DNA of 64,000 bases from an uncultured Gammaproteobacteria bacterium. GTDB lineage: Bacteria; Patescibacteriota; Microgenomatia; UBA10105; UBA927. Below, piece after piece: positions 57,207 through 60,313 of the stretch. The stretch spans positions 176,627 through 240,626 of the forward strand of contig CAZVTT010000001.1 in the NCBI GenBank assembly GCA_964629685.1, written 5' to 3'. Positions within the stretch are counted from its first letter, which is position 1. Each line of letters begins with the position of its first letter. The position numbers were made by a program, and so were the translations under genes. The notes beneath the pieces were generated by a model. It was not told where the DNA came from. It made no database searches and was given only the letters and a program-made list of their open reading frames with translations.

Positions 57207-57647
57207 TTAAAATTGGGTCGGCTGCATGGGTCCACCTGCACCGGATGTGCCATCTGACGGACCGGGTACTACAAAATCTGTTACTTTGACACCGGTAAAC
57301 ACCTCTATAAGTCGTAAAATAAGATATGAAGCTACTATAAGAATCATCCCGATAATGGCATATTGGATAGTATGTTTTGCACTCTCCAGTTTTTTGGGGT
57401 CTCCGGCAGAAAGTAAAAAAGTAAATCCACCCACTACCAGCATCACAAACATGGCTACACCGGAAAGGGTTAATATGGATACAACAATGTTACGGAAGAG
57501 TGGCTCCAAACACTGTAGCGTGGCCACGTCACCACCGCTTTGGGAATCGAGACAGCTACCCCAGCCACGGGTATACTGATCCGGTGTGCCTGCAAACACC
57601 CGACCGGTAGGGAAGAGGGACATAATAATTACTGCAATTTTCCGCAT
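57207..57647 (-). CDS. pilin-like small protein (two-helix VirB2/TrbC-like fold), paralog 1 with a longer C-terminal tail
   Basis: Signal/anchor MRKIAVIIMSLFPTGRVFA. Helix-loop-helix core VVGGFTFLLSAGDPKKLESAKHTIQYAIIGMILIVASY is shared with the five downstream paralogs. Confidence 0.5.
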   Translation of the reverse strand: MRKIAVIIMSLFPTGRVFAGTPDQYTRGWGSCLDSQSGGDVATLQCLEPLFRNIVVSILTLSGVAMFVMLVVGGFTFLLSAGDPKKLESAKHTIQYAIIGMILIVASYLILRLIEVFTGVKVTDFVVPGPSDGTSGAGGPMQPTQF

Positions 57648-57702
57648 AAGTACATCTGGTATTATCTCGTATCAATGCGAATTTGTCCAACTTTAGGGAA
57701 CC

Positions 57703-57729
57703 AAAAACCCCCGGCAATTTGCCGGGGGT
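57703..57729 (-). terminator. rho-independent terminator inside the pilin-like array (minus-strand orientation)
   Basis: Perfect 9-bp GC-rich stem CCCCCGGCA-ATT-TGCCGGGGG. On the minus strand it is followed by a TTTTTGG run. It lies between pilin-like paralog 2 and paralog 1. Confidence 0.6.
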
Positions 57730-57753
57730 TAAAAAGTCAAAGTTAAGTAATGA

Positions 57754-58113
57754 TTAAAAATCCGATCCGCTGAACGTCGGTGTCGGTATGTTAAATGAGT
57801 TGTTTCCGACGATGGAAACACCCAGGAATGATTGGGCGAGTAACATAATGGCGTAGGCTGCTCCTACGACTATGAGACCGACAACTGCGTGTGTAATTTT
57901 GTTGCGGGCTGCTTCCATACCGGCTTTGTCGCCGCCTGATGTTATCCATTGGATACCACCGAGTACCAGGTAAACGAAAGCAAGCAAAGCTGCGATGATA
58001 AAAAGTAAACTAATTGCTGAGGTGATCAAGCTGCCAATGTCGGCGATTTTAAAGCCTTTTGGTTGCCCGAGCGATAATGTTTGAGCATAAACTTTCGGTA
58101 CTAATAAATTCAT
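57754..58113 (-). CDS. pilin-like small protein, paralog 2
   Basis: 119 aa. LVLGGIQWITSGGDKAGMEAARNKITHAVVGLIVVGAAY. Confidence 0.5.
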   Translation of the reverse strand: MNLLVPKVYAQTLSLGQPKGFKIADIGSLITSAISLLFIIAALLAFVYLVLGGIQWITSGGDKAGMEAARNKITHAVVGLIVVGAAYAIMLLAQSFLGVSIVGNNSFNIPTPTFSGSDF

Positions 58114-58201
58114 ATGTTCCTCCTGGTATTCCTACCCATTATATCATCATTTATATTGTGCTGCAACGCGCTTCGTTTTGTCAATACAATTAGATTGCGT
58201 A

Positions 58202-58558
58202 TTATTGTCCCATGACCGGAAATGGAATTTGACCGACCTGTATTCCGATAAACTGGCCGGCTAACGTAAACAGTGCCCATGATGCTGCCACAATGACGAT
58301 TCCAATAATAGCGTTAGTAATTCTGTTCCGTGCACTCTCTAATTTAGATTTGTCCCCTTCGCTGGTGAGCCAGGCAATGCCGCCGGTAATCAGGTAAATA
58401 AATAACATCAAAAACGAAATAATTAAGAGAGCACTTGCCAGACTGCTTACTATGCTGCTGGTAAGTTTTGTCCCTGCTTCCGGATCGGCGATAGCGCTTC
58501 CGCCGCCCAAAACAGGAAGAACAGGATTGGTAAGTTGTGCTAATAGTTTTTGTTCCAT
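58202..58558 (-). CDS. pilin-like small protein, paralog 3. The start is trimmed to the internal Met, because the ORF track's start at 58636 overlaps the upstream paralog.
   Basis: LITGGIAWLTSEGDKSKLESARNRITNAIIGIVIVAASW. Confidence 0.5.
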   Translation of the reverse strand: MEQKLLAQLTNPVLPVLGGGSAIADPEAGTKLTSSIVSSLASALLIISFLMLFIYLITGGIAWLTSEGDKSKLESARNRITNAIIGIVIVAASWALFTLAGQFIGIQVGQIPFPVMGQ

Positions 58559-58559
58559 A

Positions 58560-58976
58560 TTACGGCAACTGTAGATTCTGGATGAATGTTCCCGGATTGC
58601 GAATAAGCGGATCAAATCCGATAAACTGACCGGCAAGGGCGAGTATTGCCCATCCGGCGGCGACGATAATAAGTCCTATGAATGAATTGGTAATTCGGTT
58701 TTGGGCTTCTTCCAGTTTATGTTTATCACCTTCACTGCCAATCCAGCGGAATCCGGCAACGAGCAGGTGAAACATGAAAAAAATTGCTGCTGCGATAGTC
58801 ATGATACCTATTACCCGGGAAATAATCTGAGTAAGTGAGGTTAACGCAGCAGTGCCGCCGGCTACTCCCGCTCCGGATGTGTTTGCAAAATTACCAAACG
58901 GTCCGAGGCCCGTATCAGTACCTCCACCTATATTTCCACCTAAATCTATCGCGCGTGCCAGTAGGTTTTTTTCCAT
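58560..58976 (-). CDS. pilin-like small protein, paralog 4
   Basis: LLVAGFRWIGSEGDKHKLEEAQNRITNSFIGLIIVAAGW. Confidence 0.5.
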   Translation of the reverse strand: MEKNLLARAIDLGGNIGGGTDTGLGPFGNFANTSGAGVAGGTAALTSLTQIISRVIGIMTIAAAIFFMFHLLVAGFRWIGSEGDKHKLEEAQNRITNSFIGLIIVAAGWAILALAGQFIGFDPLIRNPGTFIQNLQLP

Positions 58977-58982
58977 ATAATA

Positions 58983-59360
58983 CTAATTCGGACCGTATAC
59001 CCTGGGTCGTAACATAAATAACGGGTCACCAAATATAAGGTATCCGAATAGTCCGGCTAAGATAAATGAAGCGGCGATAATCACTAAACCCAAAAGTGAC
59101 TGCCATATTTTGTCCCAGGCTTCGCTGAGTTTTTTTGGGTCACCGGCTGACTGCATATAGCCAAATCCTGCGAGAATAAAATTGAAGAATGCAATAATAC
59201 CCGCCACAACAAACATGAGGCGAATAATATTGGTGAAAAATAGCGGTAAACCTTTACCCGCTTCGTTTACATTACCGTAGCTTGAACCCAGAATGGGATT
59301 GGTGATTTCCCCTACGATCGGATTTGCCGCGTAAACCTTATTAATAAATTCAAAATTCAT
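58983..59360 (-). CDS. pilin-like small protein, paralog 5
   Basis: FILAGFGYMQSAGDPKKLSEAWDKIWQSLLGLVIIAASF. Confidence 0.5.
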   Translation of the reverse strand: MNFEFINKVYAANPIVGEITNPILGSSYGNVNEAGKGLPLFFTNIIRLMFVVAGIIAFFNFILAGFGYMQSAGDPKKLSEAWDKIWQSLLGLVIIAASFILAGLFGYLIFGDPLFMLRPRVYGPN

Positions 59361-59370
59361 AGCAATTCTA

Positions 59371-59685
59371 TTATAACCCAGAATTAAGCAACTTTACTCC
59401 GGTCAGAAATTCTATAATTTGTACGATCCAGAACGAAAAAACGATAACAACGAGTCCCATAATTGCTGCCGTAAGCGTTTTTTTTCCTGACTCCATTTTT
59501 TTGGGATCACCGCCGCCTGCTCCCAGTATAAAGCTCATGCCGCCAAAAACCAAGAAAAAAAAGGCAATCAGGCCGGCCAGAATATACGCATTCGCCAGAA
59601 AAACGCTGACCAGCGAACCAAATGAAGCAAATGTATTTGCCGGTTCAAAAAAATCTTTAATGGCAATAGCGTAAACCTGTGACAT
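59371..59685 (-). CDS. pilin-like small protein, paralog 6, the first gene of the array. The start is probably the internal Met; the ORF track extends to 59775.
   Basis: FLVFGGMSFILGAGGGDPKKMESGKKTLTAAIMGLVVIVFSFW. Confidence 0.5.
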   Translation of the reverse strand: MSQVYAIAIKDFFEPANTFASFGSLVSVFLANAYILAGLIAFFFLVFGGMSFILGAGGGDPKKMESGKKTLTAAIMGLVVIVFSFWIVQIIEFLTGVKLLNSGL

Positions 59686-60313
59686 GATCGTGATAAGTAT
59701 ATCAGAATGCAACCGGTTTTTCCAACGAATGAGTTTGTCACAACGGGCTCCCCATGATATAGTCACAGGTAACATGGAAGATGCAGAAATGGTGCAGATG
59801 ATTCTGGCAAGAGATAAAAAAGCACTGCAGTGGTTCTATCGGACATATACGCCAAAGCTTCAACAGTTTATCCGAAGTAAAGTTCACTTAACGGAGGACG
59901 GAGAAGAGATCCTTCAGGATACTTTGTTCGGGTTTTTGGAATCACTTCGGGATTTTCATGGGAAATCGAGTATCAAAACGTTTTTATTCTCTATCTGTCA
60001 CAACAAAATAGTCGATTATTACCGGCGCAAGCGTATAAAACACATCGTTTTTTCCCAGATGCCGCAACTGGAAATGCTTATTTCTCCTTTGCTTAACCCG
60101 GAAGAAGAGTACGATGCCGCTGCTTTGCGGGAAAAAATAAATACAGTGCTTAACCGTTTGCTACCCCGGTATAGGGAAATACTGGTATGTAAATATTGGG
60201 AAAACATGCCGGTATCATCAATTGCGGAGCGGATGGCCATTTCTTTTAAAAGTGCCGAGTCACAACTATTTAGAGCCAGAAAAGCGTTTGTCGAAGTTTT
60301 TGCCGTGTTGTAA
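59684..60313 (+). CDS. ECF-subfamily RNA polymerase sigma factor (sigma-70 regions 2 and 4). The true start is likely an internal Met near 59774.
   Basis: Region 2 FYRTYTPKLQQFIRSKV...DTLFGFLESLRDF. Region 4 LLPRYREILVCKYWENMPVSSIAERMAISFKSAESQLFRARKAF. Confidence 0.75.
   Translation: MIVISISECNRFFQRMSLSQRAPHDIVTGNMEDAEMVQMILARDKKALQWFYRTYTPKLQQFIRSKVHLTEDGEEILQDTLFGFLESLRDFHGKSSIKTFLFSICHNKIVDYYRRKRIKHIVFSQMPQLEMLISPLLNPEEEYDAAALREKINTVLNRLLPRYREILVCKYWENMPVSSIAERMAISFKSAESQLFRARKAFVEVFAVL

Follow-up and report, generated by a model that had tools for sequence, protein, structure and literature searches.

Gene Content of the Array

The stretch of DNA described here, called the window throughout, comprises 64,000 nucleotides (nt) of a genome of the Microgenomatia type of Patescibacteria (GCA_964629685.1, contig CAZVTT010000001.1). 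The study deals with a tandem array of small pilin-like genes in this window and with a type IV secretion system (T4SS) in whose neighborhood it lies. An earlier interpretation, made from the letters and the open reading frames (ORFs) and referred to below as the sequence-only reading, had described six consecutive genes on the minus strand. Both the ORF list and the sequence confirmed this, with six genes of 104-146 amino acids (aa) located between 57207 and 59685. The genes were designated g1 to g6 in the direction of transcription. In the list below, bit scores are those obtained with the Pfam family PF18895, and OG numbers denote the orthologous groups treated further on.

59371-59685, minus strand: g1, OG1 pilin-like subunit, 104 aa; PF18895 34.1 bits; heads the tightly packed g1-g4 block
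58983-59360, minus strand: g2, OG2 pilin-like subunit, 125 aa; PF18895 26.8 bits; start 10 nt after g1
58560-58976, minus strand: g3, OG3 pilin-like subunit, 138 aa; PF18895 34.5 bits; start 6 nt after g2
58202-58558, minus strand: g4, OG4 pilin-like subunit, 118 aa; PF18895 36.6 bits; start 1 nt after g3
57754-58113, minus strand: g5, OG5 pilin-like subunit, 119 aa, candidate major subunit; PF18895 33.5 bits
57207-57647, minus strand: g6, OG6 pilin-like subunit, 146 aa; PF18895 41.7 bits

The start of g1 is likely to be at MSQVYA, since the orthologues of g1 are 102-109 aa long and begin with M-x-K-V-(F/L/Y)-A. A longer g1 ORF reaching up to 59775, the end coordinate given earlier, is unlikely to give the real start, as it overlaps the divergent sigma-factor gene. 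Most of the genes carry motifs of their own. In g2 these are a conserved KIWQSLLG and the C-terminal P-x-(I/V)-Y-(G/T)-P, in g3 a Gly-rich N-terminal GGxGLGPFG common to the OG3 orthologues, and in g4 an N-terminal LLAQ-LTNPVLP. The longest protein, g6, has two Cys in its N-terminal domain, the motif ATxQCLEPLF common to the OG6 orthologues, and the Gly/Pro/Ser-rich tail that had been noticed before, VVPGPSDGTSGAGGPMQPTQF.

Protein Family and Predicted Fold

The curated Pfam gathering cut-off of PF18895 (T4SS_pilin) is 26.6 bits, applied to the whole-protein hidden Markov model score. All six array proteins scored above it (26.8-41.7 bits), g2 barely so, and because all six exceed a curated cut-off, their membership of the family is not a matter of chance. 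The same family was matched by all 117 aligned homologues. Weak matches to DUF6112 were seen in 41 of these 117, and to TrbC/VirB2 (PF04956) in 17, with a best E-value of 0.005. In addition, g6 matched weakly the NCBIfam entry for Mbov_0395, a pilin-like conjugal transfer protein of a Mycoplasma integrative and conjugative element (ICE), at E 1.3e-5 and under the cut-off.

Alignment of the six paralogues gave the loop motif [WYF]-[ILM]-x-[SG]-x-G-D-x-x-[KG]-[LM]-[ES], in which G and D are invariant. Identity to g1 was 19-39%, in agreement with the high divergence claimed in the sequence-only reading. A hydropathy scan found two transmembrane helices in each protein and 3-4 Lys/Arg in each loop, and in g1 an additional, weaker N-terminal hydrophobic segment. 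The AlphaFold2 model of g5, computed from the 117-sequence alignment, consists of helices at residues 23-58 and 63-97 with a predicted local distance difference test score (pLDDT) above 93, and of flexible ends. The architecture proposed earlier, i.e., a hydrophobic helix, a short conserved loop and a second hydrophobic helix, was thus borne out by alignment, hydropathy and the g5 model. The earlier proposal had been open to the objections that structure prediction might give no helical hairpin, or that the proteins might belong to an unrelated family. The prediction for g5 is a helical hairpin, and the family found for all six is PF18895. The array proteins are helix-loop-helix membrane hairpins of PF18895. 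Their N- and C-termini are probably outside and the basic G-D-x-x-K loop cytoplasmic.

Orthologous Groups in Related Genomes

Eight further loci were retrieved, five of them (L006, L008, L010, L011, and L013) via pilin homologues and three (L015, L016, and L017) independently via homologues of the VirB6-like protein encoded downstream of the array. Counts out of nine include the window. Named homologues came from Gottesmanbacteria, Roizmanbacteria, the Microgenomates group and the Patescibacteria group. A scan of reference genomes with a single pilin returned only two distant Roizmanbacteria loci. An assembly of sample SRR14271339 also contains the array. Seven of the eight retrieved loci showed the same order of mevalonate genes, a Yip1 gene, a gene for a 76-aa protein and a divergent ECF-type sigma factor gene, then six pilin genes and the VirB6-like gene; in these seven, the VirB6-like gene also faces a convergent gene for a very large protein (1103-1388 aa). 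L008 has four pilin genes only, positions 5 and 6 being absent.

There were two main observations from the comparison. Firstly, position in the array predicts relationship. In all-against-all BLASTP searches the gene at the same position was the best match in the other genome in 104 of 112 cases, and all eight exceptions involved L008. For g1 this held in every other genome. Profiles built for each position were applied to four independent loci, which were not used in building them; the genes were assigned to OG1 through OG6 in array order, each margin being 45 bits or more. The six groups occur in the same order in eight of the nine loci. OG4 was the type most frequently recovered (58 of 120 homologues). 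The second observation was that the orthologues are conserved to about the degree of housekeeping proteins. Their identity to the window genes was 43-65% (50-61% for g2), and in the same genomes it was 57-59% for HMG-CoA reductase, 64-70% for HMG-CoA synthase and 55-69% for the sigma factor. In three of four genome comparisons OG5 was conserved better than any other group, with 58-65% identity to the window copy and 72-79% among the other genomes.

Judged from these sequences, the six genes appear to be six ancient, separately conserved subunits, and not recently amplified or fast-evolving copies. An antigenic-variation type of arrangement, as suggested in the sequence-only reading, is argued against by the fixed order of OG1-OG6 and by a divergence no faster than that of HMG-CoA reductase, HMG-CoA synthase and the sigma factor. 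Since the group profiles gave no mapping of a Saccharibacteria array (L012, GCA_017406365.1) onto the six groups, the set of six is taken as a feature of the Microgenomatia-type lineage.

Two further arrangements of pilin genes were recorded. The Saccharibacteria array contains, at 8001-8699, a gene for a 232-aa fused di-pilin, each hairpin of which has an S-(A/S)-G-D-P-N-K loop, followed by two single pilins. L013 has two more PF18895 genes (78-770) at about 6 kb from its six-gene array; they weakly resemble OG1 and OG6, and one has a full signal peptide.

Expression Signals

Three features lie in the gaps on both sides of g5.

58114-58201, minus strand: g5 promoter region and ribosome-binding site, with TTGACAA, TTGCAG(CG)-17-TATAAT and AGGAGG in this order
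57730-57706, minus strand: intrinsic terminator hairpin after g5, AACCCCCGGCAAATTGCCGGGGGTT followed by TTTGG; 11-bp stem with 8 G-C pairs, and a T-run
57661-57689, minus strand: g6 promoter-like site TGGACA-17-GATAAT, 13 nt upstream of the ATG; predicted 5' leader very short or absent

Genes g1 to g4 are packed with a spacing of -14 to +10 nt in all six-gene loci compared, except for L017 with a 146-nt gap before g4, and no Shine-Dalgarno sequence was found before g1-g4 in the window or in the compared loci. The gap before g5 is 67-147 nt in the comparison with relatives. A scan placed a promoter-like site at 58184-58155 upstream of g5, and in a five-genome alignment of this region TTGACAA was invariant, TTGCGC-17-TATAAT was conserved and GGAGG stood ahead of the ATG. 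These elements recur in L015 and L017, and GGAGG also in L016. Among the 53 genes of the window AGGAGG was found before g5 only, and a 5-mer Shine-Dalgarno match in just six.

The terminator lies between g5 and g6, confirming that a strong hairpin separates the last paralogue from the five upstream ones. The intergenic region holding it folds at -29.8 kcal/mol, and an Rfam scan of 55000-60500 returned sub-threshold matches only, which were caused by the terminator. In L016 the OG5 gene is likewise followed by a terminator of similar kind. Since the hairpin recurs in L016 only of the loci checked, the conserved feature is rather the own promoters of g5 and g6. The VirB6-like gene has a promoter-like site at 57189-57161, and a -10-like box was found 7-13 nt before the ATG of the OG6 genes of L006, L010, and L011. 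For g6 and the VirB6-like gene taken together, such a box stands 7-14 nt before the ATG in several genomes. This suggests g6 and VirB6-like transcripts with a very short leader or none.

With g1-g4 packed, g5 and g6 preceded by their own promoter-like sites and the layout conserved in relatives, differential expression, as proposed earlier, is probable. On account of its conservation and of its own promoter, Shine-Dalgarno sequence and terminator, g5 (OG5) is likely to be the major or shaft subunit, and g1-g4 would then form a stoichiometric minor set.

In the window as a whole, clear Shine-Dalgarno sites were seen at g5, the gene of ribosomal protein L25 (36874) and HMG-CoA reductase (61201). 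A TATAAT-like box stands 7-14 nt ahead of the ATG in many of the 53 larger genes; leaderless or near-leaderless mRNAs may accordingly be widespread there.

N-Terminal Leaders

The leaders of g1-g5 consist of 5-11 residues followed by two hydrophobic residues, Ala, and Gln or Ala (KVYA-A, LLA-Q, KVYA-Q). In 83 of 120 homologues such a hydrophobic-hydrophobic-Ala motif ends at residue 14 or earlier (shuffled controls: mean 17.5, maximum 28), and in 58 of these 83 Gln follows directly. A full Sec-type signal peptide was found in g6 alone among the six; at least seven homologues have one as well, ending in a similar motif farther from the N-terminus. The explanation of short leaders by mis-called starts was rejected, as each ORF opens with the first start codon that follows a stop and only 1-10 nt lie between the genes. 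The short motif may be a vestigial signal-peptidase site, a novel processing site or a packing element. Agrobacterium VirB2 is processed after Ala and before Gln, and the motif of the array is reminiscent of this site. An AYAQ motif is also invariant in the VirB6-like protein.

Secretion System Genes Around the Array

The following genes of the window belong to the secretion locus or mark its position.

55670-57148, minus strand: VirB6-like polytopic membrane protein, 492 aa, by fold match; directly downstream of the array
44192-46246, minus strand: VirB4-family ATPase; NCBIfam CD1110-family VirB4 408 bits (cut-off 325), Pfam P-loop_TraG and CagE_TrbE_VirB
46249-46941, minus strand: TrsD-like protein resembling the VirB4 N-terminal region, 230 aa; NCBIfam TrsD and VirB4_plasma N-terminal matches
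46982-48640, minus strand: PrgI/VirB3-like protein, 552 aa; Pfam PrgI 31.6 bits, over the cut-off
48826-51153, plus strand: VirD4-like coupling-protein ATPase; Pfam TrwB_AAD_bind and TraG-D_C, both over their cut-offs
41306-44179, minus strand: 957-aa protein with C-terminal M23 peptidase domain; Pfam Peptidase_M23 73.8 bits
37612-39006: dnaA
39181-40290: dnaN

The VirB4 gene is about 11 kb from the array and within 10 genes of it, and nadD and nadE are also among the genes near the locus. The locus is a replication-origin-proximal chromosomal T4SS of monoderm ancestry, as described for Patescibacteria (PMC12102498). To judge from its position beside VirB4, the 957-aa protein probably serves the system as its cell-wall hydrolase, in analogy to VirB1 or PrgK. 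The match of the 230-aa TrsD-like protein to VirB4/TrsD is confined to their N-terminal part; the VirB4 N-domain is thus apparently encoded by a gene of its own. The PrgI/VirB3-like protein has an unusual length and contains a carboxypeptidase-regulatory-like domain, with a sub-threshold Pfam score (30.4, cut-off 32.3).

No Pfam family was found for the 492-aa protein and its 309 homologues. Its AlphaFold2 model, based on 101 homologues, had a mean pLDDT of 80.8, and in a Foldseek search against PDB eight of the nine best matches were to TrwI/VirB6 of the R388 stalk, the best with E 0.013 and probability 1.00, and the ninth to Legionella DotA. The E-values for TrwI/VirB6, 0.013-0.38, are modest, and the protein is designated VirB6-like by its modeled fold only. 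The gene follows the array directly in eight of nine loci. Homologues of VirB6 have been described as "scarce" in Microgenomatia (PMC12102498), presumably due to divergence, and the 492-aa protein is a good candidate for the missing component. Residues 124-202 of it gave a weak TrbC/VirB2 Pfam match (E 5e-4), stronger than that of any of the six pilins. In this segment PKQAYAQ, with A131-Q132 invariant, precedes two helices joined by an RKKIDPK loop, and the pLDDT of the model falls below 50 precisely at residues 131-133. By its sequence the segment appears to be an embedded pilin-like module.

Several other genes around the array were noted. For a 1018-aa protein (52515-55571, plus strand), no family was found in Pfam or NCBIfam. 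Its C-terminal region holds a hydrophobic segment, and its end, GGSSGGHGHGH, is rich in Gly and His. With 9-28% identity, against 43-70% for its neighbors, it evolves much faster than any other gene product of the neighborhood, and it could be a host-contact factor or a T4SS substrate. On the other side and divergent from the array, 59774-61192 on the plus strand holds genes for a sigma factor of the ECF type, a small protein with a single helix (76 aa in relatives; within ORF 60222-60545) and a Yip1-domain membrane protein. This divergent arrangement was seen in L006, L010, L011, L013, L015, and L016. In the window 88 bp separate the start codons of the array and the sigma gene, and the block may be a dedicated regulator of the array. 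It is followed by HMG-CoA reductase and HMG-CoA synthase genes (61201-63420, plus strand), after which relatives have thiolase and GHMP kinase genes, so that the array has a mevalonate pathway cluster as conserved neighborhood. A YidC/60-kDa insertase gene is located in the same window (29853-30689, plus strand); as pure conjecture, YidC would be a plausible insertase for pilin hairpins devoid of a signal peptide.

Comparison with Known Pilins

Arrays of this kind are already known. Quinonero-Coronel et al. (2025) recorded 441 VirB2-like arrays of 2-11 genes in 383 Patescibacteria assemblies, abundant in Microgenomatia (PMC12102498). Like the array described here, they consist of tandem PF18895 genes with a paralogue identity of about 25%, in a chromosomal T4SS of the monoderm (FATA) class near dnaA. 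Such arrays are recognized by at least two tandem pilins, low identity and a VirB4 of Patescibacteria type, and the window has six genes, 19-39% identity and VirB4 nearby. Wang et al. (2023) reported for the Saccharibacterium Southlakia epibionticum that its T4SS cluster includes a row of predicted pilins which are essential (PMC10633639), and according to a 2025 review this organism has six structurally conserved, sequence-divergent VirB2-like pilins (PMC12857230), i.e., the same number as here. A VirD4-like coupling protein is encoded in the present genome, whereas none is recognized in S. epibionticum. The sequence-only reading had regarded multi-paralogue VirB2-like arrays as not a standard T4SS feature, which is correct for classical systems but does not hold as a novelty, as they are documented in Patescibacteria by these three sources. 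While the arrays in the literature were treated as variable, with host adaptation suggested, the one presented here falls into fixed orthologous groups in fixed order with a conserved internal promoter layout. What the present analysis adds is the fixed six-group order, the conserved promoter and ribosome-binding site of g5, and the VirB6-fold neighbor.

Classical VirB2/TrbC/TraA pilins (PF04956; T-pilus structures 8cue, 8exh, and 8fai) are likewise two-helix hairpins with a short basic loop, and their partners are VirB6 and VirB4, as presumed for the array. They differ in that no sequence homology to the array proteins is detectable, in that five of the six array proteins have no long signal peptide, and in the host, which here is a monoderm. 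Furthermore, VirB5, VirB7, VirB9, and VirB10 are lacking here, and classical systems normally have one major pilin. The comparison by hhalign of the pilin family profile with a single VirB2 sequence was not significant. A sequence search of the profile against all PDB chains returned no pilin and no meaningful match, and fold searches with the hairpin model gave only generic helical hairpins.

A topological parallel is found in monoderms. Gram-positive T4SSs in general possess the VirB2-like pilin PrgF, and PrgF of pCF10 is required for Gram-positive conjugation (ter Beek et al., 2025; bioRxiv 10.64898/2025.12.18.695078). As in the array, this is a small protein of out-membrane-in-membrane-out topology in a monoderm T4SS, with its gene just upstream of a VirB6-like gene (prgH in pCF10). 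Proteins of PrgF type are described as having 50-150 aa, a two-helix topology and a VirB6-like partner; the array proteins have 104-146 aa and a VirB6-fold gene directly downstream. The PrgF loop, S-x-D-P-(K/R)-x-L-(E/D), is by eye similar to that of the array. In contrast to the six genes here, there is one prgF gene per system, and PrgF, with 75 aa, has neither N- nor C-terminal extensions and gives no PF18895 match.

The major and minor pilins of type IV pili and of the pseudopili of type II secretion (GspG with GspH, I, J, and K) offer a functional analogy only. It consists of several old, non-redundant paralogues of one small fold in fixed order, one of them abundant and several of low abundance. 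Fold, assembly machine and processing enzyme are unrelated, and the prepilin peptidase motif is not present in the array.

Discussion

We consider it likely that the array encodes six non-interchangeable PF18895 pilin-like subunits of a chromosomal T4SS in Microgenomatia-type Patescibacteria. If they work in the manner of VirB2 and PrgF, the subunits would first enter the membrane; with the help of the VirB4 ATPase they would then be extracted and assembled into a stack on the VirB6-like platform, whose gene lies immediately downstream. This would give a pilus or conduit reaching towards the host cell that these epibionts need. The translationally packed g1-g4, having no Shine-Dalgarno sequence, would supply low-abundance or minor subunits, and g5, with its own conserved promoter, the sole AGGAGG and in this genome its own terminator, the major one. 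The g6 gene and the VirB6-like gene would each be transcribed from an own promoter just before the ATG.

A number of points weigh against this interpretation. None of the six proteins matched PF04956 (TrbC/VirB2) at E<=0.1. When the family profile was compared by hhalign with 120 Agrobacterium-type VirB2 relatives, collected with an Agrobacterium VirB2 sequence that had been checked against PDB 8cue and 8fai, the probability was 1.3%; this is a weak negative, since the VirB2 set is narrow (55-93% identity). A comparison with the single pCF10 PrgF sequence, which is a weak test, gave 0.3%, with the loop alone aligned. The promoter and Shine-Dalgarno calls are consensus matches and not measurements, and no terminator was present after the OG5 gene in L006, L010, and L011. 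The division into major and minor subunits is one that we infer from such signals. To our knowledge no filament has been observed for any PF18895 protein.

The earlier assignment to VirB2/TrbC-type pilins is therefore only partly upheld. The proteins are T4SS pilin-like helical hairpins, as seen from the PF18895 matches, the AlphaFold2 hairpin and a T4SS neighborhood that includes the VirB6-fold protein downstream, but homology to VirB2/TrbC is unproven in view of the 1.3% hhalign probability. Membership of PF18895 is established, and membership of the VirB2/TrbC family proper is not. That the proteins work like VirB2 or PrgF is suggested by analogy in architecture, topology and VirB6/VirB4 context.

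The strongest alternative is that the proteins are T4SS components that form no extracellular pilus. They might span membrane or wall as a stalk, line a channel together with the VirB6-like protein, or serve as chaperone-like membrane partners. The pilin-like hairpin with its AYAQ motif embedded in the VirB6-like protein would suggest packing within the membrane, a defined complex would call for a fixed set such as these six, and the absence of reported filaments for the family points the same way. Against it, g5 carries expression signals of the kind usual for a subunit made in very large amounts, both terminal tails vary and are predicted to be exposed, and PrgF, the topological analogue, is reported to behave like a pilus former (bioRxiv 10.64898/2025.12.18.695078). 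We regard this alternative as rather unlikely.

Much less credible is a diversification cassette for antigenic variation or host range, in which interchangeable major pilins have been amplified and have diverged for different hosts. There is a precedent proposed for the VirB2 paralogues of Bartonella and Anaplasma, and the idea has been suggested for Patescibacteria (PMC12102498). The low identity between paralogues, the variable tails outside the membrane, the extra copies elsewhere in some genomes, e.g., in L013, and a Saccharibacteria array outside the six groups would all agree with it. However, the six groups keep their order in eight of nine loci of genomes whose housekeeping proteins are only about 55-70% identical, and the orthologues match housekeeping enzymes in conservation. 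Neither repeats nor signs of recombination were found, and the only lineage-specific change of copy number is the loss of two genes in L008. In addition, the pilin series of S. epibionticum is reported to be essential (PMC10633639; PMC12857230), which fits non-redundant subunits.

That the genes encode small membrane proteins unrelated to secretion, whether holin-like, small multidrug resistance-like or of another two-helix type, and stand beside a T4SS by accident is extremely improbable, for although structure searches cannot discriminate among generic hairpins and some homologues match unrelated membrane families weakly in Pfam, all six proteins pass the PF18895 cut-off, the array adjoins a VirB6-fold gene in eight of nine loci, DUF6112 and TrbC/VirB2 are the second and third commonest weak families among the homologues, g6 resembles a Mycoplasma ICE pilin-like conjugal transfer protein, if weakly, and phage lysis genes are absent nearby.

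The preferred interpretation, six distinct pilin-like subunits of one T4SS, can be extended to a more detailed model that we put forward tentatively and hold to be possible, though doubtful as a whole. It assumes one obligate hetero-oligomeric appendage across Microgenomatia, with OG5 as the shaft, the co-translated OG1-OG4 as an initiation or tip complex in place of the missing VirB5, and OG6 under separate control. All subunits would carry a degenerate short leader (two hydrophobic residues and Ala, then Gln) that is removed or recognized by an undescribed route, its motif being invariant in the VirB6-like platform as well.

Patescibacteria, which live attached to host cells, account for a large part of bacterial diversity, and in the one species tested their T4SS, including the pilin series, is essential. 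In Microgenomatia the pilins look like a fixed and ancient six-part set with one probable major subunit, rather than a variation cassette. The array appears to be physically coupled to a highly diverged VirB6 that sequence profiles have largely missed in Microgenomatia. Taken together, the conserved promoter and ribosome-binding-site layout, the fixed set and the coupling to VirB6 lead to concrete predictions for modeling and for expression studies.

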